The notes beneath the pieces are model-generated. The model made no database searches. It saw only the letters and a list, made by a program, of their open reading frames with translations, and was not told where the DNA came from. Positions 21,507-44,584 of a DNA stretch of 44,584 bases are shown here, in pieces; within the stretch, counting starts at the first letter, position 1; the number at the start of each line of letters is the position of its first letter. This DNA is from a virus: positions 1 to 44,584 of IMG/VR virus record IMGVR_UViG_3300002307_000022. One strand, given 5' to 3'. A program made the translations under genes and the position numbers.

Positions 21507-22661
21507 TTAGCTGCTTCTTTCCTCTAATCTAACCATATTTCTTTCAATAAGTTTTAAATTTTCAATAAAATTATTCTTCTTATTGAGCAACCTATACAGA
21601 TCTAAGTTGTGCTTGCAGATCTTTTCCATTTCTTTTCTAACATTGATTTTTGTTAAATCGTCCATTTTAGCTATTGTGCGTAGATTTTCTATCATAATAG
21701 CTATTCTTTTTTCTAATGGAATATTACAATCATAACTCTCATCTATCCAATCTGAAAAAGTAACATAACCTTTCTCTCTGAGAAATTCTAGTGTTCCAGG
21801 ATTTCCTAATATCATAAAGGGCATACCTATGCTAATCGGCTTATATGATTTTTCACTTATAAAAAAACTTTCGTTATCTACATGAGTTTCGGTAACGATA
21901 TAGATAAATGAATTTTCGCAGAAGCGCATTGGTGTTTTTGCTGTAGGATTAGCACTGCCTATATCTTCAAAATCTAATGTATCATATGTTTGGTTAGCTA
22001 TTGTAGTATCTGGATTATTCATTTTAAATCTCTCGAATAATCTGTTAGATTGTAATGAGTCTTTCCAATTGGCATTTGCCCAAGTATTGTATCCATTCCT
22101 CAATAGATTATTATCTATTATCTTTTGCATCAATATACATCTATGGAGTCGAGGCATCCTGTTGAGGTTTATATAATCTTTTCCTGGTGTATATTTTGTT
22201 AGTATATCTTGTGCGTCAAGGTGTTGCTGCCACTGCTCTACGTAAAGGAATTTAAAAAGATTAGTCCTATTTTTTAGTTTATGATCGCTGCTTATATAAT
22301 AAGTGGGGATCGACGTGTGGAAATAATTAACAAAATAGTCAACTATGTATGCCATGTTAGCATTACCTTCTAGAGGATCTAGAAAAACCGGAACCAGTTT
22401 CCTATTAGTAAACAGCTCTATATAGTCTTCAACAAACTTAACTAATTCATTGATAAATTTGCTTTGATATTCTAAAAATATAGGAAATATATAACTGACA
22501 TTCCTTTCAAAATCCCAAGTAGTATCAACTTCTAGATATTTAAAAAAATGGAATTTATTATTATCATCGATTACATTATCGTTTTCTAGTTGCCAACCTA
22601 CACTCATATTGTCTCTAAACAGTTGGGTTTTTTGGAATTCTGCCAATATCTTAATTTTCAT
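21507..22661 (-). CDS. GT10 (fucosyltransferase)-like GT-B protein
   Basis: LNRMPRLHR, IVTETH..FISEKSYKPI..PFMILG..LREKGYVTF..IDESYD; paralog of 25550-26893. Confidence 0.5.
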   Translation of the reverse strand: MKIKILAEFQKTQLFRDNMSVGWQLENDNVIDDNNKFHFFKYLEVDTTWDFERNVSYIFPIFLEYQSKFINELVKFVEDYIELFTNRKLVPVFLDPLEGNANMAYIVDYFVNYFHTSIPTYYISSDHKLKNRTNLFKFLYVEQWQQHLDAQDILTKYTPGKDYINLNRMPRLHRCILMQKIIDNNLLRNGYNTWANANWKDSLQSNRLFERFKMNNPDTTIANQTYDTLDFEDIGSANPTAKTPMRFCENSFIYIVTETHVDNESFFISEKSYKPISIGMPFMILGNPGTLEFLREKGYVTFSDWIDESYDCNIPLEKRIAIMIENLRTIAKMDDLTKINVRKEMEKICKHNLDLYRLLNKKNNFIENLKLIERNMVRLEERSS

Positions 22662-23400
22662 TTATAATTCCTAATATATGTTCTGCAAATTGCTTATGGG
22701 AAAGAATTCCCTTGTGCATATCGTCCCTTGCTAAGTCTATATCTTTCATATTACCTATTTCTTTAAAATCAAATTTTTCTAACAGTGGTTTTATTTTATC
22801 ATGGAAATCTCGTATCCAACATCTAAAATATACTTCAATATTTTTTTCCTTTAGCAAAACAAATAAAGAATATAGATTCCAATATGTTTTTAATAAGATA
22901 GTCTGTTCAAATAAGATAGAGTGTTCCATAAATGCGATTTGCGATCTATCACTAGGAACAAAATTAGGACCGTGTAGTTGTAGATATTTTTCACAAGACA
23001 TCTGTCTCATCGGATCACTCATATACCAAACCAATTTATCTATTTTAAAATTATCCAACGCCCAAGCCAGGTTAATTATCTGCATATCAGGACCGCTTCC
23101 AGGAACGCCTAAATTAATACAGTGCCAATTATTTCCTAATCCTCGAGTTACTATTTCTGGAAATATATCATTCTGAGACAATCCAACACCAAAAGTTATA
23201 CTGCATCCTACAAAACATATAGTTTTTTCTTTAGGTGTCGAATCATATCTAAATCCATGTTCATTTATTTTATAAGTGAATGGTTCCCAATCTGGTAATA
23301 CTTTTTCAACTGATGTTGTTACATCCGCTTCCTGAGAAGGATGAAATAAACTACAAGGAATATGCGTATCATTAGGATAGCTTGCGTCTAGCACTTTCAT
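22651..23400 (-). CDS. SGNH/GDSL-like hydrolase or acyltransferase
   Basis: VGCSITFG, NLGVPGSG, DLARDDMH. Confidence 0.65.
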   Translation of the reverse strand: MKVLDASYPNDTHIPCSLFHPSQEADVTTSVEKVLPDWEPFTYKINEHGFRYDSTPKEKTICFVGCSITFGVGLSQNDIFPEIVTRGLGNNWHCINLGVPGSGPDMQIINLAWALDNFKIDKLVWYMSDPMRQMSCEKYLQLHGPNFVPSDRSQIAFMEHSILFEQTILLKTYWNLYSLFVLLKEKNIEVYFRCWIRDFHDKIKPLLEKFDFKEIGNMKDIDLARDDMHKGILSHKQFAEHILGIINEN

Positions 23401-24662
23401 AAAAATAAATCCTTTAAAAATGGAAAAACTTCTTTGCTTTTATCATTCCTGATGAGGTCTAATTTAGCTGTCATAGATCGCATCTTGGAAATTTGAGGAG
23501 TTTTATCTTCCGAATTCATATATGAAACAATATTCCTAAACGGGTTAGCATTGATCCTATATAGTCGTTCAATCTCATCTGCATATGCTAAAAGCTTTTC
23601 TGAAACTTGTTCTTTATATTCTGCAGGCAATAACTGACAGTTATAATATTCCGGATGTATTAAATTATTAAGATGGAATGTAGTACTAAAATGATTTTGC
23701 ATTTCTCGTAGGTCAACCATACCAAGTCTTATACATTCTCTATGGAAATCTGGCATATAGTAAACATTCCAAAAGCTTATAGTTGGATGCATACCCCATC
23801 TTATATTTCTACTATTAAATAATCCGCTAGACTTTAGACTATTAAAATTTTCAACTACTTGATTCCAATCTCCGCCCTTGCGTAGATAATTATAACGATC
23901 TCCACAATCATCAATACTTGCCATTAATTCTATGCTATCAAAATGTTTCCACATTTCTAAGAGATCATGTTTTTTATATTTTAATACACCAAAATTTGTG
24001 CTGTATCTTATCTTTATATTGCGTCGATTTTCTTTTATCAATCTTTCTAGAACGCGATAATGTTCGTCAGTTATTAATGGTTCTCCACCAGCAAAATGTA
24101 TGTATTCTACTTTATCAAATAAATTTTCAAAATCTTCTTCAAATGCTTCTACAGTATTCCATATTTTTTTAACTTTGGGCGGAGCTTTGTCACTATCAAT
24201 ATCCCATAATTTTATATAATCATCGTGCCACTGTGTAGAAAATTCAATACCACAAGTCCGACAACGTTGATTACAGATGTTTGAAAACCTAAAATCCCAA
24301 TGCACTAGATTTAATTCGTCAACTGTTCCGTCATCTTTTGTACTTTCTACAATTTCTTTATGCTTGCTTGCATAACTATCATTCATATGAGTACGTAGAC
24401 TTGTAAATCCATCTTCTTCTTTTTCATAGCAGCGACTACAAAAATTATCTGCTGGATTTCCTTCTAACATATCTAACCGTAGCTTTTTCATCTGCTCGCT
24501 ATTCCATACTTCGGCTATTGTTTGAGTTTCCATATTTCCAATAGTTTCGTTAATAGGTGACAGACAACAAGGATTAACTGCTTTGTTGGGCATAAAATGC
24601 ATATGTGTCCACGGAGCCATACAAAAAGTTTTATTTGATTTTAAATTTGGAATTGTTTTCAT
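23397..24662 (-). CDS. radical SAM enzyme with N-terminal twitch/SPASM-like domain
   Basis: FCMAPW..PCC..CSRC precedes CNQRCRTC; FAGGEP; YSTN. Confidence 0.9.
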   Translation of the reverse strand: MKTIPNLKSNKTFCMAPWTHMHFMPNKAVNPCCLSPINETIGNMETQTIAEVWNSEQMKKLRLDMLEGNPADNFCSRCYEKEEDGFTSLRTHMNDSYASKHKEIVESTKDDGTVDELNLVHWDFRFSNICNQRCRTCGIEFSTQWHDDYIKLWDIDSDKAPPKVKKIWNTVEAFEEDFENLFDKVEYIHFAGGEPLITDEHYRVLERLIKENRRNIKIRYSTNFGVLKYKKHDLLEMWKHFDSIELMASIDDCGDRYNYLRKGGDWNQVVENFNSLKSSGLFNSRNIRWGMHPTISFWNVYYMPDFHRECIRLGMVDLREMQNHFSTTFHLNNLIHPEYYNCQLLPAEYKEQVSEKLLAYADEIERLYRINANPFRNIVSYMNSEDKTPQISKMRSMTAKLDLIRNDKSKEVFPFLKDLFL

Positions 24663-24667
24663 ATATT

Positions 24668-24674
24668 AATTTAT
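24668..24674 (-). promoter_or_regulatory. late-like box ATAAATT, probably leaderless
   Basis: 5 nt before ATG 24662; no SD. Confidence 0.4.
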
Positions 24675-24687
24675 TCATTCCCGTAGG

Positions 24688-25575
24688 TTAGTCTGACCAA
24701 AACCATCCCTCTGGTCTACGTTCGTATTCTTCTGCTATATTGGTTTTTTGATATAATAATTGGTGAGGATATACACTGCTCCTGTTAGGATCAGCAGCCC
24801 ACTCGTATAATATCTTTTCCCAAGTATTGTGTGCATCTTGGACTTTAGTTATAGTGTTATTATGAAATTCATATTCAAGGACTGTTTTGATATATTGATA
24901 ATGCTCATTTGGCGAAGGATGTGAATCGCTAAATTTGCTTTCAAATTGTTTCCAAAGACTCTGCGTTTTAGTATCTATCTTGCCATCCCAAAGCACATCA
25001 TAAAAGCTAGGGCGTATCTTAGATAAAGAATCATTAAACGTTTCTTTCAATTTATCAATCATTGTTTTCTTATCTTTATTTAGAAACGTATCGATTAATC
25101 CATAATTATATTGATTAAACACCTTGGTTATATCAATCATAGATAGAAAATGATATTGACAACCTTTGTTTTTTAAGAAATCGTCAGTAGCACTGATCGT
25201 AGCATAATCTCTCAATGCCATACCGGCAGGGTCAGCAAATTTTTCAACCCAATCATCGTTATAAATGTTTTGTGTATAGATATTTCCCGGGCAGATCCAA
25301 TTATCTTCAACATACCTGTCCTCTCTGCATACATTAGTCCAACAAACAATAACTAAATCATCGCTGTTAAATTTAAAAAAAGCATCTGCTTGTATTATCG
25401 TATTAAAAATATATTGATTGCCAGCACCAGCAGTAGCATAATTCCAATAAGGAACCTTAGCTTCTATAGCAACAATCATTGGCCAAGTCATCCATCCGTA
25501 TCTAGTAAAACTACATCCAAATGCAAAAAATCTCTTTATTCCGTTCACATTAAAGGATTGCATTGTATTTTCCAT
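24688..25575 (-). CDS. SGNH/GDSL-like protein
   Basis: FGCSFT, NYATAGAGN, WT..RED, DSHPSP..H. Confidence 0.65.
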   Translation of the reverse strand: MENTMQSFNVNGIKRFFAFGCSFTRYGWMTWPMIVAIEAKVPYWNYATAGAGNQYIFNTIIQADAFFKFNSDDLVIVCWTNVCREDRYVEDNWICPGNIYTQNIYNDDWVEKFADPAGMALRDYATISATDDFLKNKGCQYHFLSMIDITKVFNQYNYGLIDTFLNKDKKTMIDKLKETFNDSLSKIRPSFYDVLWDGKIDTKTQSLWKQFESKFSDSHPSPNEHYQYIKTVLEYEFHNNTITKVQDAHNTWEKILYEWAADPNRSSVYPHQLLYQKTNIAEEYERRPEGWFWSD

Positions 25576-26893
25576 TTAATTGTCCAAATAATATATCAAA
25601 TTTATCTTTATGGTTTTTATTATAAAACAGTTCTCTATTTTCTTTCAATTTATATTTTATCGAATCTAATATGTCATATAGCTGGGATTGTGGCATAGCA
25701 ACCAAACGTTCTACATTATCGCATATCATACTAATCCTTTTTATGAGATCCGGTTCACTATCATATGATTCATCAAACAGTTCTTCAAATGTATGGTATC
25801 CTTGTTCTTTTAGATATCGAATAGTACCTAAAGATCCTAACACTATAAATGGATGTCCAATAGCTATAGGTTTCCATGTTTTCTCCGTAGTCCACAACGT
25901 ATTATATTCATTGTTTGGATAATTTTTGTTTTCACAAGGAGAAAATGTTTCAGTTACTATACTAAAAGCCGAATCATAAAAATGTTTAGAATCGTATCTC
26001 CTATCATCACCGTCAAAAAATTCGTGTCCATCACCATCTAATATAAATTTTTCTGCTTCTAATCTTCTCATTGAGGATATCTTTAATTCTACATCTATCC
26101 GTTGATGATCAACTATACGTTCATCATCAACATTAAACATAAACGGTCCCGGATGTGTACCCCAACTTACATATCCACTATCTATCAATCCTCTAGATAA
26201 TAACTCACTAACTAACCCTGCTCTATGAATACGCTTATTACCATTATAATTTAGGAATATTTTAGATGGTTTATTCCAATTATCGATCTCAAAACTTTCT
26301 CTAAGTTTATCTTTGTCAGACAACAGATGATCGTACAACCTAGCACTGCGGCATTCACTCCCTAGATAACGTGTATAACAGGTCATCTGATGTTTGGGTT
26401 GCCACCAATCTATGCCAAATATCTTAAAACCCTTGAAATATTCTGTATACGTAACGTTTAGATCTCCCAGTACTATGTAAATATTGTCTATTGCTACACC
26501 GTTTTCTATAAATTGGTTTGCAAAATCTTTTATAGGCGAAAATGCCCAACCGTCTGCACCTTCTTCTTGGAACAATATCAAAACTTTTATCATACCTTGT
26601 CTAATAAAATCCAAAGTTAAGTTTGGTATAGTATCTTTGATACTAAACTCAGGACGTATCACTTCTATAGGATAAAATAAATTAGGAACAATACTACCGT
26701 TAGTAAAAATGTTAACAGCGCATCCTTGTGCAATCGCAAGATCATAGAACATTGCTACCGAATTGATATGATTTGTTTTATTTAGATAAGGCAAAAAAGG
26801 AAATTTAATATCTCCGTTTGTAATCTCAAACTCAACTGCACAATTAGGAACTGGACCATACTCAGTTATCTGATCATAATAAAAATTAATCAT
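25550..26893 (-). CDS. GT10-like GT-B protein
   Basis: YNGNKRIHR, IVTET..TEKTWKPI..HPFIVLG..LKEQGYHTF..DESYD. Confidence 0.5.
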   Translation of the reverse strand: MINFYYDQITEYGPVPNCAVEFEITNGDIKFPFLPYLNKTNHINSVAMFYDLAIAQGCAVNIFTNGSIVPNLFYPIEVIRPEFSIKDTIPNLTLDFIRQGMIKVLILFQEEGADGWAFSPIKDFANQFIENGVAIDNIYIVLGDLNVTYTEYFKGFKIFGIDWWQPKHQMTCYTRYLGSECRSARLYDHLLSDKDKLRESFEIDNWNKPSKIFLNYNGNKRIHRAGLVSELLSRGLIDSGYVSWGTHPGPFMFNVDDERIVDHQRIDVELKISSMRRLEAEKFILDGDGHEFFDGDDRRYDSKHFYDSAFSIVTETFSPCENKNYPNNEYNTLWTTEKTWKPIAIGHPFIVLGSLGTIRYLKEQGYHTFEELFDESYDSEPDLIKRISMICDNVERLVAMPQSQLYDILDSIKYKLKENRELFYNKNHKDKFDILFGQLNGKYNAIL

Positions 26894-28388
26894 ATGTTGC
26901 TAATGGATCTTCTATGTTCCTATCTTTAGGAGTCAATATCCACCCTTCTTTTTTCGCTAATTCTTGTAGCTGTATATCCGAATCCCACTGTTGGCTACTA
27001 TCACCATTTACTAAATTGTTAGATCCTGTATTCGTGATAGGTAATTTATCAAACCAATCAGTTAATATTTCAGGAAATACATAGATACTCTTATCACGAC
27101 GCTGATCATATTGGGTATAGAATGTTTTAAAGTCTCTCCATAATGTTATCTTATTGCTTGTGTGTCGGTGTGGTGCATCAACTGTATCTAAATAGTCTAT
27201 CAATCTCTCCATAGAGGCTAACTCAAACTCGTGCCAAAGAGGATTATGTTTGTTATTATTATACCAAGTTTCTAGTTTATCCTTACAGTAACTCTTTATG
27301 TGATCAGGTAGTGCTAAAGGACTTTGAAAACTAGGAAACCTCAATAGATTTAAACTTACACTAGGATTCTTAGTTCCAGACAAGATCTTTAAGCTATAAA
27401 TTTCATCTAAAAATTCAGTAATACTAAAGAGACAGAGGCTGTTTATAGTCATCATCACGTGTAAACCTTTTAGATTAGCTTGTGTACCCAATCGTATTAC
27501 ATTACGTTTCCACATATCATAATCAAATCCGTCCCTTATATACTCTGCTTGAGGACCAAATGCTTCGCAACTTGTATACAAGTGGAAGTGCTTAACTTTT
27601 TTGCTCTTTTCAATGAGCTTATCTATGATATCATCTTTAGCTATGAGGTTACTGTTAATAGCAAATCTCATATCGCTGTCTTGTGCGTTAAACCAATCAA
27701 ATAATTTCCAAGTATTAGCACTCATTAGAGGTTCACCGCCAGTGATTCGCAGTTCTTCCAAACTTTCACTTAGCCCATTATCCCACCATTTCCAAAAGGC
27801 TTCTACATATGGATTGTCTTCATCTCGTTTAAATGGTTCAGCCCAGCTGCCATCTTGCTTAAAAGCATTGGCTCCGTCGCTTACTAGATTTTTATATACC
27901 CCATTCTGCTTGATATCACGTGCCCAAGTAGTACTAAAACTAGCATTACAATAGCTACAAGCTAAGTTGCATACCCTATCAAAGCTTATTTCAAGTGTCT
28001 TTAGCTGTTCATTGTGAGTCCAGGATTGTTTAGCTATAGTTTCTATCTCTTCATCACTATATATAATGGTTTTAAACACACGATCGCTTACTGTATCTTT
28101 GCCTATATCTTCAATCTTCCAGCAATATTCACACTCTGCAGGTCGTTCACCTTCCTGCATCATTTTGCGCATTAGCTTCTTATGCTTAGTATTGTGTATG
28201 GCTGTATAACTTTCTTGTACTTCCTCTAATGGGATCTTGTGTGCTGGCGGGTGATGACAGCTAGCAGTAGTGCCGCTACCTAACCAAGTAGTGGCATTTA
28301 GCCACTTGGCGGCACAGAAGCTTTTGCTCTTAGTATCAATAACACGGTCTCTATATTCAATCAGCGTTTCGTTGGGGGTTTTAGGCAT
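26886..28388 (-). CDS. radical SAM enzyme with N-terminal twitch domain
   Basis: FCAAKW..SCHHP..CEYCW; CNLACSYC; ITGGEP; INSN. Confidence 0.9.
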   Translation of the reverse strand: MPKTPNETLIEYRDRVIDTKSKSFCAAKWLNATTWLGSGTTASCHHPPAHKIPLEEVQESYTAIHNTKHKKLMRKMMQEGERPAECEYCWKIEDIGKDTVSDRVFKTIIYSDEEIETIAKQSWTHNEQLKTLEISFDRVCNLACSYCNASFSTTWARDIKQNGVYKNLVSDGANAFKQDGSWAEPFKRDEDNPYVEAFWKWWDNGLSESLEELRITGGEPLMSANTWKLFDWFNAQDSDMRFAINSNLIAKDDIIDKLIEKSKKVKHFHLYTSCEAFGPQAEYIRDGFDYDMWKRNVIRLGTQANLKGLHVMMTINSLCLFSITEFLDEIYSLKILSGTKNPSVSLNLLRFPSFQSPLALPDHIKSYCKDKLETWYNNNKHNPLWHEFELASMERLIDYLDTVDAPHRHTSNKITLWRDFKTFYTQYDQRRDKSIYVFPEILTDWFDKLPITNTGSNNLVNGDSSQQWDSDIQLQELAKKEGWILTPKDRNIEDPLATYD

Positions 28389-29754
28389 TCCATTCCTCTA
28401 AAAATTTTGCATACTCTGGAAATGTAGCTGAGAAGTCTGTTTTCCTGCGCTTATCATATTCGTTTATATACTTTACAAAGTCCTGTTTAGCAACGGTTGT
28501 ATTTTCGTCCTGTAATAGAAAATCACAAAATCTCTTTATTTGATCCCATTCTTCTAAATATATACGAGCAAATCTCTCAGTAGTGTGATATTTTAAGCAG
28601 CTCTCTGATTTGTTAAGTATCTCTGCAACGTATTGCTCTCTTATATCTCTAGGCAATAGTGTAGCACTTAGATAAGTAGGCCATCTTAAAAAATTAATAG
28701 ACAATGGTACACGATTGTACTCAAACGCCTTGTTAAATTCTTTCCTAAATTCCATAATCACATCTATAAAATCAACCATAGTAGGTAGACTTAGTATGTT
28801 TATAGTGGTCATTACAGCTACATTTACTTCAGTTTGTTCTAAAACCTTCCTAACATTTCGAGACCATAACTCATAATCTAACCCAAACCTAGAATACTCT
28901 GCTTGTATACCTGTACTTTCTAAGCTAGTATAAACATCTATTTTTTTTACACATCCTTTTATATTGTTTATTTCAGCTATAAATCTATCTATCAATTTGT
29001 CATCAACACATAGATTGCTGTTTATAGCTATCTCTAGCCCAGGTTTCGGATTTTCTTTTATATAGGTAAAGACTTTCCATAAATCTTTACTCATTAAAGG
29101 TTCGCCTCCGGTAATCCTAAACACCTTAAGTGTGTCAATAGCAGCCGGAAACCATTTCCAAAAAGCATCAACATAGGGATTGTGTTCATTATTCTTGTAA
29201 GGGTATCGACCTATCTGTTTAAGCCATCCTAGATCGTGGTTTCCTTGAGTAGTAGGGTAGGGGCCAAACTGCTTTATCTCCTCTAACCACTTGCTGCTAA
29301 CTTCAGAGCTACAATAAGAACACTTTAAGTTGCAAGCATTGCTAAAACTAACTTCTAAGTAAGTTGGGTTAATGTCTAAATTAGGATCAGATTTTGCTAT
29401 TTTATCTACATCGTTCCAAGCCCAATGATCTGCTGTTTTATAATGCCTATCTGAGAAATAGTCTTTTCCTAAATCTTCTACTTTCCAACAATAGTCACAC
29501 TCTGCTGGACGCTTGCCTGCTAACATTAACTTACGCTGTTCTTTTTTAAACGAAGAATTATGTAATGCAGCAGGATTAGCTAGTACTTCATTTACAGGAA
29601 TCTTGTGGGGAGCAGGATGATGGCAACTATGGTTATACCCGTTTTGTAAATAAAGGGTAGTCTGTAACCATTTAGCAGCACAAAACGACGGACTTATAGT
29701 ATCTATTATCTGACGTTTGTCCTTGAGTATCTGGATTTTTTCTTCATTGCTCAT
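28381..29754 (-). CDS. radical SAM enzyme with N-terminal twitch domain (tandem paralog of 26886)
   Basis: FCAAKW..SCHHP..CDYCW; CNLKCSYC; ITGGEP; ATG 29754 is the likely start. Confidence 0.9.
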   Translation of the reverse strand: MSNEEKIQILKDKRQIIDTISPSFCAAKWLQTTLYLQNGYNHSCHHPAPHKIPVNEVLANPAALHNSSFKKEQRKLMLAGKRPAECDYCWKVEDLGKDYFSDRHYKTADHWAWNDVDKIAKSDPNLDINPTYLEVSFSNACNLKCSYCSSEVSSKWLEEIKQFGPYPTTQGNHDLGWLKQIGRYPYKNNEHNPYVDAFWKWFPAAIDTLKVFRITGGEPLMSKDLWKVFTYIKENPKPGLEIAINSNLCVDDKLIDRFIAEINNIKGCVKKIDVYTSLESTGIQAEYSRFGLDYELWSRNVRKVLEQTEVNVAVMTTINILSLPTMVDFIDVIMEFRKEFNKAFEYNRVPLSINFLRWPTYLSATLLPRDIREQYVAEILNKSESCLKYHTTERFARIYLEEWDQIKRFCDFLLQDENTTVAKQDFVKYINEYDKRRKTDFSATFPEYAKFLEEWNA

Positions 29755-29814
29755 ATATAAGATAATTATCAATGATTTGCCAGCATAGTTAGCGGTCCTG
29801 GTTATAGAAAACAC

Positions 29815-29845
29815 TTGACATAGAATCTAGATATGCTATTATAAT
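29815..29845 (+). promoter_or_regulatory. sigma70-type promoter for thyX
   Basis: TTGACA-N13-TGC-TATTAT(AAT). Confidence 0.7.
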
Positions 29846-29864
29846 ACTTTAGAAGGATAGATAT

Positions 29865-34525: not shown

Positions 34526-34600
34526 GCGGCTCGTAGCATAGAGGTTTATGTGCTAGATGACCAATTTAGAGACGGAGGTTCGAATCCCCCAGCCGCTCCA
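34526..34600 (+). tRNA. non-canonical tRNA-Gly-like gene (anticodon ACC, encoded CCA)
   Basis: GCGGCT(C)G/CAGCCGC acceptor stem, U73, CCA; D arm GCAT/ATGT with GG; anticodon arm CTAGA-TGACCAA-TTTAG; 4-nt variable loop AGAC; GG(A)GG-TTCGAAT-CCCC T arm. Confidence 0.75.
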
Positions 34601-36378: not shown

Positions 36379-37181
36379 TTAGAGGAATCAACAATCAACC
36401 ATATATTAATATGGAACCATATTTAGATATGGATGCATTTGAAAAAATGCAACCAGAAATATACAGAGGATTTAGCGAAGCTAGAGAATTTGCCAAAGAA
36501 GGCACATGGATGAAACCTGGTTTTAATTTTAAAGATATGAGTTATAACATACACTGGAAACCAATTTATAAGGCAATTGAAGAATTTTTAGCTCTTCCAG
36601 ATACTGATCCTATAAAATTAGGAGGTATTGATCTGTATAGAGATTTTCACGATTTTCGAATTAGAAATAAATTTACTAGATACATAAAAATGGCTATGGG
36701 AGCTTATGATCCGTATATCTATTATTTTTTATGGGAGCAAGGCAGCTGGGATGATAGATCTGCTGTTAGAAAACTAACAGAAGAAGCAGTATATTTTCCA
36801 AATGTTGTTAAATGGATAGAAAAAATGATAGACGACAATATCTTTGAAAGCATTGGTAGAGTAATATTCTTTCACTGTGAAGCAGACGGTATACCATTTG
36901 AACATCGAGATCTTGACGGTAATAAAGGAACTAATCAAACATACAGTATGCATAGGAATGAATATATACATATTCGACCAAATACTAAAAAAGCATTTTA
37001 TTTATGGGATCCGGAAAAGAAAAATAAAATTTATTTAAACACTCGTGCGGCATGGTGGAATGATCAAGACTGGCACGGTGGTGAAAAGATTATGGAACAA
37101 AGCTATGGTCTTAGAATAGATGGAACATTTACAGAAGATTTTAGAAAAAAATTAGGAATAGCACATCTGGAGGGCTACTGA
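36375..37181 (+). CDS. 2OG-Fe(II)/cupin oxygenase-like protein
   Basis: IGRV, EHRD, DWHGG, LRIDG (HxD..H..R). Confidence 0.65.
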   Translation: MIRGINNQPYINMEPYLDMDAFEKMQPEIYRGFSEAREFAKEGTWMKPGFNFKDMSYNIHWKPIYKAIEEFLALPDTDPIKLGGIDLYRDFHDFRIRNKFTRYIKMAMGAYDPYIYYFLWEQGSWDDRSAVRKLTEEAVYFPNVVKWIEKMIDDNIFESIGRVIFFHCEADGIPFEHRDLDGNKGTNQTYSMHRNEYIHIRPNTKKAFYLWDPEKKNKIYLNTRAAWWNDQDWHGGEKIMEQSYGLRIDGTFTEDFRKKLGIAHLEGY

Positions 37182-37675
37182 TGAAATTTATAGGAAACTT
37201 TAGTAACTGGATTGATCCGGAATGGGTTAACTATATAATGAACAACACCGGAATGGAAAGACCCGGAAAAAGTGTAAATCCAGATACAGAAGAATTCCGT
37301 AAAGCAACTGCATCGGGGTATGATCTTAGTAAAACATATTGGCATTCGTATGATACTAGATCGTTTCCCTTTAATGTTACTCTACCGTTTAAAACAGATA
37401 CTATAGAACAATGGTGGTTTATTAAAATGATGCCTGGAAATTTTATGCCAATACATAGAGATGTGTTTTTACCAGAAAGAAAAAATTATACTCGATACTG
37501 GATGCCTTTACAAGATTACCAACCTGGGCATATTTTTGTATACGATAAACTATTTGTGACTGATTATAAGGCTGGAGATATGTGGGTATACGACGATCCG
37601 GATACATTGCATGGAGCTTGTAACATAGGATATACACCTAGACTAACATTTCAATGTTCAACATATGAGGAGTAA
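37181..37675 (+). CDS. 2OG-Fe(II) oxygenase (AspH-like)
   Basis: PG..MPIHRD, LHGACN, PRLTFQ. Confidence 0.75.
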   Translation: MKFIGNFSNWIDPEWVNYIMNNTGMERPGKSVNPDTEEFRKATASGYDLSKTYWHSYDTRSFPFNVTLPFKTDTIEQWWFIKMMPGNFMPIHRDVFLPERKNYTRYWMPLQDYQPGHIFVYDKLFVTDYKAGDMWVYDDPDTLHGACNIGYTPRLTFQCSTYEE

Positions 37676-37679
37676 AAAG

Positions 37680-38207
37680 ATGATGAAATTTATAGACAAT
37701 GTTAAAGATCAATTAAATTTAGATATATTAGAACATTTAGAAAAATCAAATGGTGATACTGTACCAGTATGGCAACCTGATAGATGGAAGGGACATCCTA
37801 TGCTAGATGAAGCTAGGGAAAGAGCTAGGTGGGGATATAGTAATAAAGATCACGATTTTCAACAATTTAATGAGCGGTCTACTGATATGATAGCGTACAA
37901 TTTAAAATTGCCGCGCATACCCAATGACGATCGAAAAATGCTTTGGTGGTTTATAAAATTATTACCTGGACAAATGCAAGCTATGCACTTTGATCCTCAT
38001 TTGTTAGAAACTAAAAATCCAAAAAGATACACTGTATTTTTACAAGATTTTATTTCAGGACATATATTTGTGTGGAACGATCAAATAATTTCAAATTATA
38101 AAGCAGGAGATTTATTTGAATGGACCGATCCAATGTGCTATCACGGGTGTGTAAATATTGGGTATGATACTAGATACACATTACAAATTACTACTATCGA
38201 TAGCTAA
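37680..38207 (+). CDS. 2OG-Fe(II) oxygenase (AspH-like)
   Basis: PGQMQAMHFD, YHGCVN, TRYTLQ; SD GAGGAG favours start 37680. Confidence 0.75.
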   Translation: MMKFIDNVKDQLNLDILEHLEKSNGDTVPVWQPDRWKGHPMLDEARERARWGYSNKDHDFQQFNERSTDMIAYNLKLPRIPNDDRKMLWWFIKLLPGQMQAMHFDPHLLETKNPKRYTVFLQDFISGHIFVWNDQIISNYKAGDLFEWTDPMCYHGCVNIGYDTRYTLQITTIDS

Positions 38208-38735
38208 TAAATGTAGCATATACTTGGGAGTTAATCCTGCATTAATTCCACTGTGCCAATTTTTATAATCAGCCCACTGATATATAGTACCTTGCTCTTG
38301 GTTAAAGAGATATTCATCCTCTACTATAAAGATATGACCGTGGACTGGTTTCTCTATAAAACAACTAATTCTTTTTGGATATCCTTTTTTTAGATATTCC
38401 AATTCATTATCATCAACATCCCAATGCCAAGGAGCAAAATATCCAGGATTAATTCTACTAATCCAAGAACGCAATGGTATCATTTTTAAATAATTGCTTA
38501 ATTTTAAAGTTACATCGTTTGAATAATGTACACCTGGATAATAATTTATCCATTCAATTGCTTGAGTATTAAATTTAGCATCATTCCAATTTTTATATAT
38601 TTCAGTATATCCTGGAGTATCTAATTTCCATTTTATTGGATCAGGAGTTATACTAATACCATCGTTAACAGAAAGTGTTTTTATTAAAGTATCCCAATCT
38701 TCTAAATGATTACAATTTCCAATAAATTTATTCAA
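38181..38735 (-). CDS. 2OG-Fe(II) oxygenase (AspH-like)
   Basis: ISRINPGYFAPWHWD, WHSGIN, PKYML. Confidence 0.75.
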   Translation of the reverse strand: MNKFIGNCNHLEDWDTLIKTLSVNDGISITPDPIKWKLDTPGYTEIYKNWNDAKFNTQAIEWINYYPGVHYSNDVTLKLSNYLKMIPLRSWISRINPGYFAPWHWDVDDNELEYLKKGYPKRISCFIEKPVHGHIFIVEDEYLFNQEQGTIYQWADYKNWHSGINAGLTPKYMLHLLAIDSSNL

Positions 38736-39306
38736 TTATATCTCCCATAAAACATTCTATATGAAATAGATACTGGGGTTTATTACTTGTATTTGAAGAT
38801 GAATGTAATTGATACATATTATCCCATTCATATATATTTCCTAAATCAATATTATGGAAACATTCATTATCTAATGTAAATACCTGCCCTATTATTGCAG
38901 GAGAAATAAAGCACACATAACGTTTAACTATTTTACCTGGTTTAACATTTGGTGTAGAATCTTCGTGCATAGGAACTAATGCGCCCGACGGTACTCGACT
39001 AATACTAGATGTTAATTCTATTCCACCAATAAATTTAGATACCTCAGTTGATATATCTAATCTATAATGTTTTTTAGGCCTATATAATTGAAAGTTAAAA
39101 CTATCTAAATTATATCCGTTTTCTATCCATTTTTTTGCAGTTGATCTATTATGATCTTTATCATCACAGTTATCACTATTTGTAGTTGTTAATATTTTAG
39201 TTATTAATTCCTTATCAAAATTTTCACCCGGCGATGTATCTTCTAAATGATCTATTACATCTTTCCAATTAATAAGGTGTGAACAGTTACCTAGATATTT
39301 ACTCAT
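38728..39306 (-). CDS. 2OG-Fe(II) oxygenase (AspH-like)
   Basis: ISRVPSG..VPMHED, LHSSSN; start 39306 chosen by paralog alignment. Confidence 0.7.
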   Translation of the reverse strand: MSKYLGNCSHLINWKDVIDHLEDTSPGENFDKELITKILTTTNSDNCDDKDHNRSTAKKWIENGYNLDSFNFQLYRPKKHYRLDISTEVSKFIGGIELTSSISRVPSGALVPMHEDSTPNVKPGKIVKRYVCFISPAIIGQVFTLDNECFHNIDLGNIYEWDNMYQLHSSSNTSNKPQYLFHIECFMGDIIE

Positions 39307-39982
39307 TAAATTTTTTCCAGTAAAACTCATTCAATGCATCTTCAGGCCATTTTATATAAGATTTAATTGCTTGTTTAAAAAATAATTCAAAATTTACACT
39401 ATCTCCATCTATAGCTTCTTTAAACCTACCAGATGAATCTTCGCCCATCATTCCGGTTAATCTAGATAATTTTAAAAAAGGGTTATTAATTTCAATACAA
39501 GCGTAGAAATCAAAAGTTTTTAATATTCCTAATTTGTTTATAAAAAAACAATGAGGATAAAGGCTCATTTTATAATATCCGGAATCAATTATATCATTTA
39601 AAATACAAAATAATTGTTCTTTCCAATTAGGGCAAAATTCTTCCAATTTACCTCCTTTGTTTATAATATCATTACAAGTTTCAGAGTTCCATTCGAAAAA
39701 TATTTTTTTATTATCAGTATCAATTTCTAAAAAATCCGGAGACCAAGAATAATTTTTGAAAATATTGATATTCATTAATTCTCTAGAAAAGAAATACTCA
39801 ATTAACTCATTATTAAATCCATTTCTAGGATTTCCATTGTCGAGTTGATACGGATCGTTAGCGTCCCAAGACATACATAATATATCTTTTGATGTATTCA
39901 TCTTAGGTGTATATAACAGATTAGATCTATGATATTTTCCATCCATAAATTTACCGTAGTTATTCCAATTTTCTGTATCCAT
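39299..39982 (-). CDS. protein-kinase-like/APH-fold protein, paralog of 34566
   Basis: NLLYTP, FSREL, P.FLEID..KKIFFE, KMSLYPHCFF, KTFDFY. Confidence 0.55.
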   Translation of the reverse strand: MDTENWNNYGKFMDGKYHRSNLLYTPKMNTSKDILCMSWDANDPYQLDNGNPRNGFNNELIEYFFSRELMNINIFKNYSWSPDFLEIDTDNKKIFFEWNSETCNDIINKGGKLEEFCPNWKEQLFCILNDIIDSGYYKMSLYPHCFFINKLGILKTFDFYACIEINNPFLKLSRLTGMMGEDSSGRFKEAIDGDSVNFELFFKQAIKSYIKWPEDALNEFYWKKFNE

Positions 39983-39987
39983 GTATA

Positions 39988-39995
39988 TATTTATA
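39988..39995 (-). promoter_or_regulatory. exact T4 late promoter consensus TATAAATA, leaderless
   Basis: 5 nt before ATG 39982; no SD. Confidence 0.65.
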
Positions 39996-40038
39996 GCCAT
40001 TAAATATGATACAAAAAAAATATAAAAATAAGTACAAT

Positions 40039-41424
40039 ATGAAAGACAAAATACAAGAATATGTTTCTCAAATAAAAGCTAAGACTGGAACTCCTACATT
40101 CTGTGCGCTACCTTGGATACATTTAGCTACTAGGCCAAACGGTGATGCTAGATTATGTTGTGTTACAAATGCTAGCGGAGCACATACTGGAGACCATACG
40201 GTTGGATTAGTTAAAAAAGAAAACGGACAACCTGCTAATTTTGGCGAAGATACTCCGCTAAGTGCATTTAATAACGAATATATGAGAGATGTTAGAAAGA
40301 CCATGCTAGCTGGTCAAATTCCAGCTAGTTGTACAAAGTGTTTTGAAGAAGAAACAAACGGTGTAATTAGTAAACGTCTGTGGGAATTGTACGAATGGAA
40401 TAAAGAAGGATTAAATTTTCAAGAGTTAATCGATAATACAAAAGAAGATGGAGAAATTCCACCGATAATACGATATTTGGATTTGAGATTAGGACATACT
40501 TGTAATCTCAAATGTGTAATGTGTAGTCCACACGATAGTAGTCGATGGGTACAAGATTATCCTAAGATGATAAGTGCGACAAAAAGTGAAACTGTGCTTA
40601 AACAAATTACTTGGGATAAGAAGAAATTTAATAATTATTGGTACCAAAAGCCCGAATTTTGGAATGAAATTTTTGATCAGATCCCCAATATAAGTCAAAT
40701 ATATTTTGCAGGCGGCGAGCCATTAATGATTGCCGAACATCGAAATTTCTTAGATGAAATAATTAGACGCGGATATAATAATAAAATTATGTTAAGATAT
40801 AATTCTAATGGTATAATGGTTAATGATGAAATAATAGAGCTCTGGTCTAAATTTAAACAAGTTAGATTTGCATTTAGCATAGATGCGATAATGGAAAAAA
40901 ATTGGTATATTAGATATCCAACTGCTTGGAAAGATATAGAAAAAAGTCTTACATTATTAGACAACACACCAGACAATATTCATGTACATATCGCGTGTGC
41001 TGTACAAGTATTCAATATAAAGCATATAATAGATTTCGCTAAGTGGAAATTAAATCAAAATTTTAAAAAAATAAACAAATTTAAAATGGATCAGTACGAA
41101 GCAGGTGGTGGAATTATAAATCTACATCTATTGTATATTCCTACATTCCTTAGTGCTAGAATTTTACCAAAAGAAGATAAAGACAAAATACGAATTATGT
41201 TTATAGAATTTAAACAATGGTTATGGGACAATTATAGACAAGATGATGCATTTTGGATAGATAATCCGTATGGGTGGAAAAGATGGGAAGCTATATTACG
41301 GTTTATTGAAACTGAAGATCACTCACATCTACTTCCGGATTTTAAAGAATATGTAAATAATTTGGATCGCATAAGAAATACTAATTCTAAAGATGTATTT
41401 CCCGAATTAAGTCATCTATTATAA
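40039..41424 (+). CDS. radical SAM enzyme with N-terminal twitch domain
   Basis: FCALPW..LCC..CTKC; CNLKCVMC; FAGGEP; ATAAGTA 4 nt upstream of ATG 40039. Confidence 0.9.
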   Translation: MKDKIQEYVSQIKAKTGTPTFCALPWIHLATRPNGDARLCCVTNASGAHTGDHTVGLVKKENGQPANFGEDTPLSAFNNEYMRDVRKTMLAGQIPASCTKCFEEETNGVISKRLWELYEWNKEGLNFQELIDNTKEDGEIPPIIRYLDLRLGHTCNLKCVMCSPHDSSRWVQDYPKMISATKSETVLKQITWDKKKFNNYWYQKPEFWNEIFDQIPNISQIYFAGGEPLMIAEHRNFLDEIIRRGYNNKIMLRYNSNGIMVNDEIIELWSKFKQVRFAFSIDAIMEKNWYIRYPTAWKDIEKSLTLLDNTPDNIHVHIACAVQVFNIKHIIDFAKWKLNQNFKKINKFKMDQYEAGGGIINLHLLYIPTFLSARILPKEDKDKIRIMFIEFKQWLWDNYRQDDAFWIDNPYGWKRWEAILRFIETEDHSHLLPDFKEYVNNLDRIRNTNSKDVFPELSHLL

Positions 41425-42321
41425 TTATTTCCATTTAGATATAGGAATATCTGCTTCACACGTACACCAGTTACGTGTACATATTACAGGATCTTCTGTA
41501 GATTTAAATGATCCTTGATATATATTACCTAATGATTCACCTACACGACAAGTAGCTCTATGCACCTCGCCGTCCCAGTTTATCATTAGGCTTTCTAATC
41601 CAGCATTACAAGACCATCCCTTAAATTGATTCATGTGGAGTTTTATTATATCATTAGCATGGTATTGTTCCATATCATTTATTAAACAATTTGGTACAGC
41701 AGTTGCAGTACTATCTTTAATCCATTCTAAATCCTGTGGATCGTATCTCATATCATCAAATAGATCGTGATTACCTTCAGTCCATCTTATACGGCGAATT
41801 ACATATGGAATTTTAAACATATGCAATGAAAATACATCCTCCTTTACAGCTTCCATATGTTTATGGTGTGCCATAACGTGTACTAGTATCTTAGTATCAG
41901 TTTTAGCAGAAGCAAATGCCAGTATATGATCAAACACTTGATCTTTATTTTTTTCATAATGTAAACTGAATACGTATTGATCCAAATATTTAGATTGATC
42001 CACATACCACTTTCCAGTTCGTGTACCGTTAGTAGTCATGCTTAACCAAACTATGTTCTTAGCATCGTTTATAGAAGCTAATAGCTCTTCTATATGAGGG
42101 TGTACGCTAGGCTCGCCGCCAGTAAGACTTAGACGCACAGGAGCGTCTAATGCGTTTAAAACCGCCACTGTAGCCCTGAGCTGTTCTATATCTATATGAG
42201 AACTATGATTATCGTGGATATATTCTGGACAATATGCACAATCTAGATTGCAGCGTTTTCCTAAATTCCATTCAATCTTTATTTTATCTTGATGTGGCCA
42301 TCGACTGGTTATTTTATACAT
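41425..42321 (-). CDS. radical SAM enzyme with C-terminal SPASM/twitch domain
   Basis: CNLDCAYC, LTGGEP, TTNG; C-terminal CNAG..TC..LGNIY..C...CTC. Confidence 0.9.
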   Translation of the reverse strand: MYKITSRWPHQDKIKIEWNLGKRCNLDCAYCPEYIHDNHSSHIDIEQLRATVAVLNALDAPVRLSLTGGEPSVHPHIEELLASINDAKNIVWLSMTTNGTRTGKWYVDQSKYLDQYVFSLHYEKNKDQVFDHILAFASAKTDTKILVHVMAHHKHMEAVKEDVFSLHMFKIPYVIRRIRWTEGNHDLFDDMRYDPQDLEWIKDSTATAVPNCLINDMEQYHANDIIKLHMNQFKGWSCNAGLESLMINWDGEVHRATCRVGESLGNIYQGSFKSTEDPVICTRNWCTCEADIPISKWK

Positions 42322-43222
42322 CTAAATTACTGTGTTTAAGCAAAGTATCCAAATATAAATCACTATTAAAAAAATCTATTCGTGTTACTACTGGATCGTT
42401 GCCTAAAACATCCTTCCCCCAATTAAATTTGCATTTATGATTTATCACATACCAATCACTTATTGTAGAATGATGATCTAAAAATGTATCAGTTATTATT
42501 ATTTCTCCTAAAAGATAATTTCCTAGTGATAGTGCATTTAGATTAGATAATGGTACAGTAAAATTAGAATTTTTAGCCCAATAATAGAATTTTCTAATAT
42601 CTCCAAATGCAAAGGGATAATCAATATCAAAAATTAATAAACTTTCAGAACTAATAGTGCTTTGAATATTTAAATCAGTTGTATCATCATCATTGTCTGA
42701 TATATCTTTCCAATCTTTTCCTAATGTTCCATAACCTAACAACAACCTTCCCCATTTTCTTTCAGTAGTTAACCAAAGTTTATATTCATCGGCAATTGGT
42801 ATATACTCAGTATTGGGTTGTTTATAAAATACCATAGATCGTTTATATTTAGAAAATCGTTCGTCTAATCTAGATTCTATAATGTGTATTAGTTTATTCA
42901 TTTCTAATAATTCAGAAGATACATCATTAAATGACACAATTACGTGATGTAAATCATTAAGCATTTTCTGCGTAACAGGAAAAGTTAATAATGGATATTC
43001 AATTTTTTTACATAATTTGTTTAATCTTTCAACTAAAGTTTCAATGTCAGTTGTAATAGAAATACCCATTTTAAAATTTTTAGAATCTTTATGTATATTT
43101 TGCCATATATGCTGTACTGGATTATCATTAAGGTGGTAATATAACTCTATTTCTTTCCCTAAAGATTCAATAGTAATTTTTGCAGTATTATATCCATTAG
43201 AATTATAAAATAAATCTTTCAT
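42314..43222 (-). CDS. hypothetical protein
   Basis: 302-aa ORF coupled on both sides; GYGTLGKDW. Confidence 0.75.
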   Translation of the reverse strand: MKDLFYNSNGYNTAKITIESLGKEIELYYHLNDNPVQHIWQNIHKDSKNFKMGISITTDIETLVERLNKLCKKIEYPLLTFPVTQKMLNDLHHVIVSFNDVSSELLEMNKLIHIIESRLDERFSKYKRSMVFYKQPNTEYIPIADEYKLWLTTERKWGRLLLGYGTLGKDWKDISDNDDDTTDLNIQSTISSESLLIFDIDYPFAFGDIRKFYYWAKNSNFTVPLSNLNALSLGNYLLGEIIITDTFLDHHSTISDWYVINHKCKFNWGKDVLGNDPVVTRIDFFNSDLYLDTLLKHSNLDV

Positions 43223-44481
43223 AGAAATTGTTTAAACTCCGGTATAATTTCTACTATTGATTTTTGTTTTCTAGAGATATCCAATCTTTCATTAAATTTT
43301 AAATAATTTTGCCAAAGACAACTTTGATCTGTTGAGTTTAGATAATTAATATTTCCGTCAATAACATTTGTAGTAATCCCTAAAAGAACAGGATTTTGTT
43401 TCACTAATTTAAAATCTTTTAACCTAGGTTTAATTAACTCTAACCTTTCAACTGCTATTTTTTTTAATTCTATAGGCAACACTTGTGCAGATAATAATTT
43501 AGGATATTCACAATAATTGTTGTAAAATACTATACCGAGATCATCTAGAAAATATTCAATCATTTTATCTAATATCATAATATTTCCGGCTTGGACACAA
43601 ACAGCACCAACTATACGAGAAATATTAGGAATAGTTTGTATTAATTTAATATTCTCTATCATAGTATTCCAATTAGCATTTCCTCTAATATGTTCATATG
43701 ATTCGCCTAATCCGTCAATACTAACATTTACTGCAACACTTTTAAATTTAGGCCAGTAATCCCAAACACTACGACCACCTTTTATTCCTAAAACACTCAT
43801 ATTAGTAGCGTACTTTATTTCAATTTGATGACCATAAAAAGCAAGCATATCTAAAATTCGATAATGTTGTGGATCCATAAGAGGTTCACCACCAGCAAAT
43901 TCAGCACGTCTAAAATATGGAATAATTTTTTCAAAACTATTCCACCAATTTGGATTATCATCAAATTTATCTAGATATGGTCTCTTCTTAAGGTTAAGAT
44001 CATTTATAGCATCTACCATAAAGTTACCTTCGGCTTTATAAAAATCTTCTACTTGATCCCAATCATTCCAGCTAGTACTATCCATTGGGTGACACATTTT
44101 ACATTTAAGATTACAAAGATTATTAAGTTTAATTTCCATAGTAGGAATTTCAAATGGCATAGTATAATCATCTCGCATATTTGATAATGCATTTGGATAT
44201 AAATTAATACGAGCTTCTGGAATAATACCTTTAATATGTCGCTGTCTTAGACTTTCAACTCCTTGATCCTCTATATTAAAACAAGAAGAACATGCTAACG
44301 GCCTTTGATCATTTAATACCTTTTGTCGTATATCTCGCATGGTACTATTATTCCATATATTTTCTAAAGTTTCGTCCTGTATCCATCCAACAGGTTGGCT
44401 TCGGCAACAAGCTAATATAGCACCATCTTCTCTAGTTGCTAATCCGGTAAAAGGATGCATACAAAATGTTTTACTTTTCAT
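43219..44481 (-). CDS. radical SAM enzyme with N-terminal twitch domain
   Basis: FCMHPF..ACC..CSSC; CNLKCKMC; FAGGEP. Confidence 0.9.
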   Translation of the reverse strand: MKSKTFCMHPFTGLATREDGAILACCRSQPVGWIQDETLENIWNNSTMRDIRQKVLNDQRPLACSSCFNIEDQGVESLRQRHIKGIIPEARINLYPNALSNMRDDYTMPFEIPTMEIKLNNLCNLKCKMCHPMDSTSWNDWDQVEDFYKAEGNFMVDAINDLNLKKRPYLDKFDDNPNWWNSFEKIIPYFRRAEFAGGEPLMDPQHYRILDMLAFYGHQIEIKYATNMSVLGIKGGRSVWDYWPKFKSVAVNVSIDGLGESYEHIRGNANWNTMIENIKLIQTIPNISRIVGAVCVQAGNIMILDKMIEYFLDDLGIVFYNNYCEYPKLLSAQVLPIELKKIAVERLELIKPRLKDFKLVKQNPVLLGITTNVIDGNINYLNSTDQSCLWQNYLKFNERLDISRKQKSIVEIIPEFKQFL

Positions 44482-44584
44482 TTAAAATCCGAAATATGTT
44501 ATCAGCTGTTAATTTATTTGATTCTAAACCAGGATGATAATCTTCTGTTTTATCAATTATAAAAAATCCATCTGTATATAAATT
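44471..44584 (-). CDS. C-terminal fragment of an SGNH-like protein (starts beyond the window)
   Basis: ...IDKTEDYHPGLESNKLTADNIF...NEK*, a block V D.HPG motif. Confidence 0.55.
   Translation of the reverse strand, partial: NLYTDGFFIIDKTEDYHPGLESNKLTADNIFRILNEK

Follow-up and report, generated by a model that had tools for sequence, protein, structure and literature searches.

The window analysed here comprises the first 44,584 nucleotides of the IMG/VR virus record IMGVR_UViG_3300002307_000022, and its second half (positions 21,507 to 44,584) is occupied by an island of enzyme genes lying around a phage fibre gene. The island is genuine and phage-borne, and it encodes a biosynthesis-like enzyme set within the fibre module. 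It is made of two parts, a conserved cassette of ~17 kb (33.2-50 kb) and a strain-variable arm (21.5-29.8 kb). An earlier note, made from the sequence alone, had proposed a late-expressed tailoring island that builds a glycan or protein-modification coat on virion proteins or remodels the host surface. The island makes up the half of the fibre module in which the enzymes are concentrated, and it is comparable to the host recognition cluster of other aquatic phages. We tentatively suggest that it encodes a late pathway by which a tailored decoration, either a small molecule or a sugar, is made for the fibre module, a possible rather than a probable reading in which both product and target are putative. 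Genes are named below by their first coordinate.

When IMG/VR was queried with the island's small-oxygenase family, at least 209 contigs were retrieved, and gene-order counts were taken from 80 of them. Nearly all 80 loci share one gene order from 33219 to ~50 kb, with protein identities of 50-70% and five short operons. Because this order is common to 80 independently assembled contigs, the island is not a chimeric assembly. One outcome that the earlier note had named as refuting its proposal, a chimeric host-derived assembly, is thereby ruled out. The cassette encodes six radical S-adenosylmethionine (SAM) enzymes, two of them of the N_Twi_rSAM family, and about six Fe(II)/2-oxoglutarate (2OG) or AspH-type oxygenases. 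Its further members are a compact pyridoxal phosphate (PLP) enzyme, a PP-loop ATPase resembling QueC and a pair of kinase-fold paralogs, and weak matches suggest that an acyltransferase and a methyltransferase may also be present. Beyond the window the cassette continues with the QueC-like gene 45070, the PLP enzyme gene 45791, the AspH gene 46690 and the radical SAM genes 47363, 48402 and 50079. The cassette features inside the window are:

33219 to 33809, minus strand: possible GNAT- or FeeM-like protein of 196 residues, orthologs in 57-60 of the 80 loci.
34566 to 35300, minus strand: kinase-fold protein A, 244 residues, PDB kinase profile E 4e-4, orthologs in 76/80 loci.
35329 to 36378, plus strand: zinc-ribbon radical SAM protein of the Tes/HMPTM type at an operon head, Zn_ribbon_HMPTM (49 bits) and Radical_SAM domains.
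36375 to 37181, plus strand: HxD..H protein of 268 residues, the best-conserved cassette gene (median identity 71%).
37181 to 38207, plus strand: two small predicted Fe(II)/2OG oxygenases of 164 and 180 residues, HxD..H.
38181 to 39330, minus strand: two small predicted Fe(II)/2OG oxygenase paralogs of 184 (TTG start) and 200 residues, both in alignment A1.
39299 to 40000, minus strand: kinase-fold protein B, 233 residues, profile match to PDB kinases/Bud32 (E 3e-3), orthologs in 80/80 loci.
40006 to 41424, plus strand: N_Twi_rSAM copy 4, 472 residues, orthologs in 79/80 loci, median identity 58%.
41425 to 42321, minus strand: short radical SAM protein with a C-terminal Cys-rich tail, 298 residues, Radical_SAM 48.6 bits, paralog of 50079.
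43219 to 44481, minus strand: N_Twi_rSAM copy 5, 420 residues, orthologs in 79/80 loci, median identity 66%.

The segment 40006-47373 is inverted in this genome relative to most of the 80 related loci. The small oxygenases differ among loci in tandem copy number, and the relatives L017 and L040-L043 carry one to four tandem copies of the 37181-related gene. The arm (21507-29814), with its glycosyltransferase (GT)-like, SGNH-like and three N_Twi_rSAM genes, is common to few loci. Its features are:

21507 to 22661, minus strand: GT-like protein A, 384 residues, paralog of 25550 (blastp 3e-22).
22651 to 23400, minus strand: SGNH-like protein, 249 residues, G-x-S, Asn and DxxH(P) blocks in alignment A8.
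23397 to 24662, minus strand: N_Twi_rSAM copy 1, 421 residues, N-terminal SPASM and Radical_SAM domains (Pfam).
24688 to 25575, minus strand: SGNH-like protein, 295 residues, Lipase_GDSL E 0.0086, paralog of 44471, in the A8 pool.
25550 to 26893, minus strand: GT-like protein B, 447 residues, paralog of 21507.
26886 to 28388, minus strand: N_Twi_rSAM copy 2, 500 residues, 38% identity to 28381.
28381 to 29814, minus strand: N_Twi_rSAM copy 3, likelier start at the ATG at 29754.

In the relative G003, whose family B DNA polymerase (PolB) is 70% identical, the homologous N_Twi_rSAM copies form a five-gene tandem array on the opposite side of the cassette, and the product of 26886 is 71% identical to one of them. 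The layout in G003 runs from core through fibre, cassette and N_Twi_rSAM array to further fibres.

Between the arm and the cassette lie the fibre gene and a thymidylate synthase gene:

29865 to 30734, plus strand: ThyX flavin-dependent thymidylate synthase, Pfam Thy1 186 bits.
30789 to 31934, plus strand: fibre-like protein with an Mtd_N head (42.8 bits) and its own ATAAATA box at 30759.

The enzyme genes therefore flank a fibre gene, as the earlier note had stated, with the Mtd_N domain and a content of 45% Gly, Thr, Ser and Asn among its residues supporting the assignment. The protein carries 18 N-x-S/T motifs. The resulting density of 4.7 per 100 residues is the genome maximum (median 0.83) and is only suggestive as a hint of decoration. 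Further Mtd_N-headed proteins are encoded at 142178 and 144180. An Mtd-type diversity-generating retroelement acting on 30789 was considered and rejected, as the 145-kb fragment holds no RVT_1 domain and no template repeat or second copy of the gene. The thyX gene had not been listed in the earlier note despite its position inside the island span, and it is missing at the corresponding position in G003.

The 144,976-base record contains the window at its start and is rated 40% complete by CheckV. Among its gene products are a gp23 major capsid protein of the T4 type (265 bits), PolB, FolE, a QueE-like radical SAM protein, a MoxR-type ATPase and a DUF2201 protein. One island protein recurs in identical form on a separate contig of 362,748 bases. 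Taken together, these data indicate that the source is an uncultured T4-like jumbo phage with a genome of ~360 kb, a phage of lake freshwater. Among five large cassette-bearing contigs, all of them fragments, gp23 is found in 3/5 and FolE in 1/5. Megablast searches with both window halves against cultured phages returned no DNA-level match. The FolE and QueE-like genes lie at 12374-14927, and their scores fall under the equivalog cut-offs.

Two further claims of the earlier note, that the island is richer in AT than the core and that it runs past the window end, agree with the complete record. GC content is 0.26-0.36 in the island versus 0.35-0.43 in the core, and the three additional radical SAM genes (47363, 48402 and 50079) lie in low-GC sequence that reaches ~86 kb. 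The enzyme block past position 44,584 adds SGNH-like, QueC-like, PLP, Asp/Asn hydroxylase, the three radical SAM and UDP-glucose/GDP-mannose dehydrogenase genes, the last at 52073. The AT-rich island itself extends to ~59 kb and a run of fibre paralogs begins at ~60 kb. This run includes an 800-residue fibre paralog (63119-65521) and a 5,518-residue open reading frame (ORF; 66193-82749, locus L082), which have repeats in common. None of the island enzymes contains membrane segments and all look soluble, hence they likely act in the cytoplasm.

Radical SAM enzymes are the most conspicuous class. Seven ORFs of the window pass or reach PF04055 (23397-24662, 26886-28388, 28381-29814, 35329-36378, 40006-41424, 41425-42321 and 43219-44481), and CxxxCxxC is present in 7/7, in line with the seven radical SAM enzymes counted previously. 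Membership in the N_Twi_rSAM family was defined as a full-length match to NCBIfam NF033640 above the curated cut-off of 170 bits. Five proteins match the model (23397 with 371, 26886 with 303, 28381 with 333, 40006 with 380 and 43219 with 306 bits), and 35329 and 41425 do not qualify. The match in 28381 starts at residue 41 of the GTG-started ORF. The residues C166, C170, C173, C109 and C112 are invariant in alignment A10 of the family, and Pfam SPASM is located N-terminally in both 23397 and 43219. The window proteins thus share with NF033640 scores of 303-380 bits, the CxxxCxxC motif and the conserved N-terminal cysteines. NF033640 is, however, a family without an assigned reaction, and in these phages it is expanded to 2-7 copies (5, 3, 3, 7 and 2 full-length copies in the five large contigs).

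The N_Twi_rSAM family was found above the cut-off in 0/14 control cellular genomes. Matches in cultured phages are distant (~23% identity) and come from Ralstonia and Vibrio jumbo phages, with the neighbourhood of the homolog in the Ralstonia phage annotated entirely as hypothetical. A homolog from a Flavobacteriaceae metagenome-assembled genome has no counterpart among species-representative genomes. A search of PHROGs gave "radical SAM" labels and nothing further. Literature searches yielded no description of the N_Twi_rSAM reaction, nor of such an enzyme mix or cassette in phages. Outside this family, the operon-head protein 35329 matches PDB 7tol (GDGT-MAS) at E 1.3e-16 and is related to the tetraether synthase/HMPTM group. 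The short protein 41425 shows weak NCBIfam matches to STM4011 and AlbA.

The second major class is formed by HxD..H proteins. Blastp links the four small paralogs 37181, 37665, 38181 and 38728. An AlphaFold model built with 47 family members reaches a predicted local distance difference test (pLDDT) score of 92.6. In an exhaustive comparison with the PDB, all 50 best VIA matches of this model are Fe(II)/2OG oxygenases (Z 13.5-9.6), with PiuC at Z 13.5 and prolyl hydroxylases at ~11.6. In alignment A1, H108, D110 and H160 are invariant, and R170, the basic 2OG-binding residue, is nearly so. By modelled fold and iron triad, the 37181-39330 paralogs belong to the Fe(II)/2OG oxygenase superfamily, with catalysis being predicted. 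Five HxD..H oxygenases had been proposed for the window. The four small paralogs hold up by fold and triad, but the fifth, 36375, is a weak case based on its invariant residues (H177, D179 and H234) and an Atlas lead of 0.95 to viral AspH clusters. The 36375 protein has no Pfam match, its PDB profile search was empty, a protein search against cultured phages gave no match, and hhalign links it neither to the small-oxygenase family (A1) nor to the 46690 family (A12). The latter gene, beyond the window, encodes a predicted Asp/Asn beta-hydroxylase (PF05118, 27.1 bits against a gathering score of 22.6).

Two cassette enzymes beyond the window are informative about the likely chemistry. The family of 45791 has no Pfam match and no PDB profile match. 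Its AlphaFold2 model (pLDDT 88.6) has Foldseek and VIA top matches that are all class I/II enzymes (Z ~18), including MalY, PatB, OvoB and RohP, and K188 (SLSK) and D160 are invariant. The top 50 matches of the model comprise aminotransferases, C-S lyases and related amino-acid enzymes, with no sugar aminotransferase among them. The model points to a PLP enzyme of fold type I, class I/II, of the amino-acid aminotransferase/C-S-lyase type. In 45070, the SGGADS PP-loop and the CxxC...C motifs are invariant. QueC (PF06508) is matched by 20/23 orthologs (best E 4.6e-7), and the protein itself reaches E 0.077. A six-frame Pfam search of the 145-kb fragment, itself rated 40% complete, detected neither canonical QueC nor TGT/DpdA. 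The cassette gene 45070 is the sole QueC-like gene of the fragment.

Several island operons share a promoter-like box with fibre genes. ATAAATA is strongly depleted across the genome, with 29 sites in 145 kb compared to 70-107 for similar AT-rich heptamers. Yet 16/29 sites (55%) lie 5-45 nt upstream of same-strand starts, where 1.7% is expected. Most genes headed by the box are fibre or structural genes. They include 30789 and further members of the fibre family, and the island operons at 32242, 35329 and 46690 carry it too, with examples in the window at 30759, 33198 and 35316. The box is kept before orthologs of 32242 (11/12), 35329 (43/103) and 46690 (13/25) against a background of 0.5%, and TAAATA precedes 32/40 orthologs of 45791 (background 2.1%). 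Internal cassette genes have the box in 0/57, 0/77, 0/73 and 0/108 orthologs. ATAAATA resembles the T4 late promoter TATAAATA. The exact octamer TATAAATA was rejected as the box of this lineage, given its rarity (3 occurrences), and the shorter ATAAATA is the enriched form. ATAAATA is thus a candidate late promoter of the lineage, judged from sequence.

The thyX, QueE-like and MoxR genes carry TTGACA-N17-TATAAT-like (sigma-70-type) sites instead, with TTGACA-N17-TATTAT(AAT) upstream of thyX. In the 50-bp divergent gap between the arm and thyX (29815-29864), the sigma-70-like pair faces thyX and no late-type box faces the arm. With the box at cassette operon heads and fibres and a sigma-70-type promoter at thyX, the term late applies to part of the island only. 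It can reasonably be inferred for the cassette and the fibre gene, and uniform late expression of the whole span is not supported. The idea of a late-expressed island hence survives in part: three operons carry the fibre-type box, a matter of motif similarity, but thyX has a sigma-70-type site and the arm has no exact box at its head.

The remaining genes of the window are assigned with less certainty or are sporadic among relatives:

31946 to 33177, minus strand: two ORFs of 99 and 311 residues (the longer is 32242), ATAAATA box at 33198, no family match.
33802 to 34497, minus strand: SGNH-like protein, 231 residues, G-H-S block I motif, absent from L001 and L002.
34527 to 34596, plus strand: tRNA-like element, anticodon ACC, aberrant, Rfam RF00005 29.3 bits (gathering score 29).
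42314 to 43222, minus strand: protein of 302 residues, sporadic (orthologs in 4/80 loci), no family match.
44471 to 44584, minus strand: 3' end of an SGNH-like gene cut by the window end (44471-45094 in the genome), paralog of 24688.

The GT-like proteins 21507 and 25550 are genuine paralogs. They fall into large virus-only Atlas clusters, some with an Epimerase/GDP_Man_Dehyd or methyltransferase fusion, and in their structural neighbours this domain is joined to an epimerase or dehydratase. The pair has neither a Pfam nor a PDB profile match, and 25550 has no protein match in cultured phages. Their previous designation as GT10-like goes back to a weak Atlas feature score of 0.80, so that the paralogy stands but the GT10 link is a lead. 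The four SGNH-like genes form a weak but consistent group. The window proteins themselves score under the Pfam cut-off, and in the pooled alignment A8 the Ser/Asn/His blocks are conserved and GDSL models are matched by 18/41 members (best E 4e-6). The 33802 gene and the neighbouring tRNA-like element look like a local insertion, both being absent from L001 and L002, and the AT-rich box between them contains TAAATA on both strands. The aberrant tRNA-Gly reported earlier sits just at the Rfam threshold, but ARAGORN finds no tRNA there, and a counterpart is present in 0/80 loci.

The kinase-fold families A and B are clear paralogs (hhalign 99.7% probability), each with weak profile-to-PDB matches. 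Their catalytic-loop positions, assigned by eye in alignments A3 and A4, read HPSS and PHC. The Asp is missing in both, and the pair lacks the HxD Asp expected of active kinases of the eukaryotic protein kinase type. A DFG-like Asp is kept only in protein B (39299). The fold proposed in the earlier note is therefore retained without the catalytic-loop Asp, and the two proteins may be pseudokinases or users of other chemistry. The GNAT-like label of 33219 goes back to weak matches to FeeM (best E 0.013) and Acetyltransf_1, and its PDB profile search was empty. The nitroreductase-like call for 32242 was dropped, as the protein has no family match.

The closest published kind of system is the host recognition cluster of pelagimyophages. 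In pelagimyophages and cyanomyophages, which are T4-like aquatic phages, this cluster is a fibre-bearing island with glycosyltransferases and lipopolysaccharide-type genes, and radical SAM proteins as well as an Asp/Asn beta-hydroxylase are mentioned in these phages (Zaragoza-Solas et al. 2020, PMC7029224). The phage studied here is likewise T4-like by gp23 and has a large fibre-region island with GT-like and sugar-nucleotide genes. Fibres lie on both sides, and the variable arm and the N_Twi_rSAM copy number differ between relatives. The published cluster has a defined position between VrlC and the neck gene gp14, whereas the likeness here is one of gene content. The genome is also far larger at ~360 kb, and the 17-kb core is conserved rather than hypervariable. 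This core is ruled by radical SAM enzymes and oxygenases, joined by the PLP and QueC-like enzymes. New findings of this analysis are the two-part layout and the ATAAATA box at operon heads.

Two other kinds of phage systems share single traits with the island. Thymidine hypermodification clusters (Lee et al. 2018, 2021; PMC5889632, PMC8989533) are also phage-encoded and multi-step, and combine kinase, PLP, radical SAM and acetyltransferase classes. The enzymes that define these clusters, namely a P-loop 5-HMUDK, an aGPT-Pplase and a dUMP hydroxymethylase, did not turn up here, though no dedicated search was made for them. The island has ThyX rather than a ThyA-type hydroxymethylase, its kinases are of the protein-kinase fold, and its promoter is of the fibre type. 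In mycobacteriophages, transferases encoded next to structural genes decorate virion proteins (Freeman et al. 2023, PMC10527164, as described in PMC12619734). As far as that description goes, these systems use one or two canonical glycosyltransferases and no comparable load of radical SAM enzymes and oxygenases is reported, while decoration is putative for the island described here.

We tentatively favour a decoration pathway because the promoter type is common to the island and the fibres, and because fibre genes bracket the island. Several operons would fire late from the ATAAATA box shared with fibre genes. The cassette would then start from an amino-acid-like precursor and make from it a moiety with heavy C-H functionalisation, and the variable arm would add or edit sugar and acyl groups. 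The product would finally reach fibre or virion proteins or, less likely, host-surface precursors. The C-H chemistry, together with the amino-acid-type PLP enzyme, the PP-loop ATPase and the possible acyl and methyl transferases, argues for a small-molecule pathway over pure protein modification. A more specific version is unlikely to hold in full. In that version, an amino-acid-derived group built by N_Twi_rSAM and 2OG enzymes is coupled to sugars by strain-variable GT/SGNH modules and installed on fibres by a self-contained, hitherto undescribed late pathway. If true, it would provide a chemically tunable receptor-binding surface for ~360-kb T4-like aquatic phages.

Most sugar-related signals come from the variable arm and from neighbouring genes (GT-like, SGNH-like and UDP-glucose dehydrogenase genes). 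The glycan or protein-modification coat of the earlier note is accordingly upheld as far as a biosynthesis-like set in a fibre module is concerned. However, the conserved core does not readily read as a glycan pathway, given the amino-acid-type PLP enzyme and the QueC-like ATPase. Several observations weigh against a decoration pathway. The PLP enzyme is like amino-acid enzymes and unlike sugar aminotransferases, and the GT assignment is built on weak leads. The head of the variable arm lacks an exact late box, and a complete fibre ORF is found within the short left flank of 8/50 loci only. Oxygen-sensitive radical SAM enzymes and oxygen-requiring 2OG oxygenases would be unusual partners in one pathway. 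Finally, the gene-order conservation among relatives may stem from descent rather than functional coupling.

Remodelling of the host surface is a rather improbable alternative. Here the substrates would be the host's cytoplasmic building blocks of O-antigen, capsule or lipid A, and the altered surface of the infected cell could, for instance, keep out rival phages. The island and its surroundings hold UDP-glucose dehydrogenase and epimerase genes as well as SGNH-like and GT-like genes, and lipid A hydroxylases belong among AspH-family enzymes. The fibre-type late boxes suggest, however, that expression would come too late for exclusion to pay. The island encodes no membrane-anchored or secreted enzymes, flippases or polymerases, and the conserved core with its amino-acid-type PLP and QueC-like enzymes fits poorly. 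Host-surface modification is nevertheless the published view of the glycosyltransferases in host recognition clusters (PMC7029224).

Nucleic-acid hypermodification has a low probability. The cassette would tailor a modified base of phage DNA, or of the nucleotides from which it is made, and this base would be either a 7-deazaguanine derivative or a pyrimidine with an amino-acid adduct. In favour are FolE and the QueE-like radical SAM protein in the core, the QueC-like ATPase of the cassette in a 145-kb fragment where Pfam finds neither a canonical QueC nor a TGT, and the position of thyX within the span. Thymidine pathways similarly join kinases, PLP enzymes, radical SAM isomerases and acetyltransferases (PMC8989533). 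Yet the cassette operons carry the fibre-type box in contrast to the sigma-70-type sites around FolE, QueE and thyX, and FolE is found in just one of the five large cassette contigs, all fragments. The kinases have the protein-kinase fold without the catalytic Asp and are not of the P-loop 5-HMUDK type, and known routes of base modification use far fewer enzymes than the six radical SAM enzymes and six oxygenases counted here.

We give the same low probability to the absence of any joint function, with independent accessory enzymes being co-inherited and kept together by gene-order conservation within a lineage. All typable cassette contigs indeed belong to one T4-like lineage (gp23 in 3/5, PolB 70% identical in one), and cultured phages outside this lineage show isolated distant radical SAM matches only. 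The tightly overlapping operons with boxes conserved at operon heads only, the order retained among proteins of 50-60% identity even though segments have been inverted locally and tandem copy numbers have changed, and the complementary enzyme classes all speak for coupling instead.

Least probable is a peptide or protein maturation kit similar to those for peptides made on the ribosome and modified after translation, with radical SAM enzymes and hydroxylases acting directly on a ribosomal peptide or virion protein: SPASM/twitch radical SAM and AspH-type enzymes are typical peptide modifiers and weak NCBIfam matches to peptide maturases exist, but no precursor peptide is visible, as already stated in the earlier note, with a six-frame motif search of the 145-kb fragment (40% complete) finding no (CHxS)3-RGRR-tailed protein and none tailed with (CHxS)3 or RGRR, the abutting or overlapping cassette genes leaving no space for a precursor gene, and the PLP enzyme and PP-loop ATPase indicating small-molecule chemistry.

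If the cassette yields a single product, its ~20 enzymes, including ten radical SAM enzymes, would be among the largest bacteriophage enzyme pathways known and would provide the first biological context for the N_Twi_rSAM family. The conserved late-type box and the split into cassette and arm offer handles for expression studies and heterologous reconstitution. If the virus were to decorate fibres or the host surface chemically, the determination of host range in abundant aquatic phages would gain a layer beyond the genetic one.

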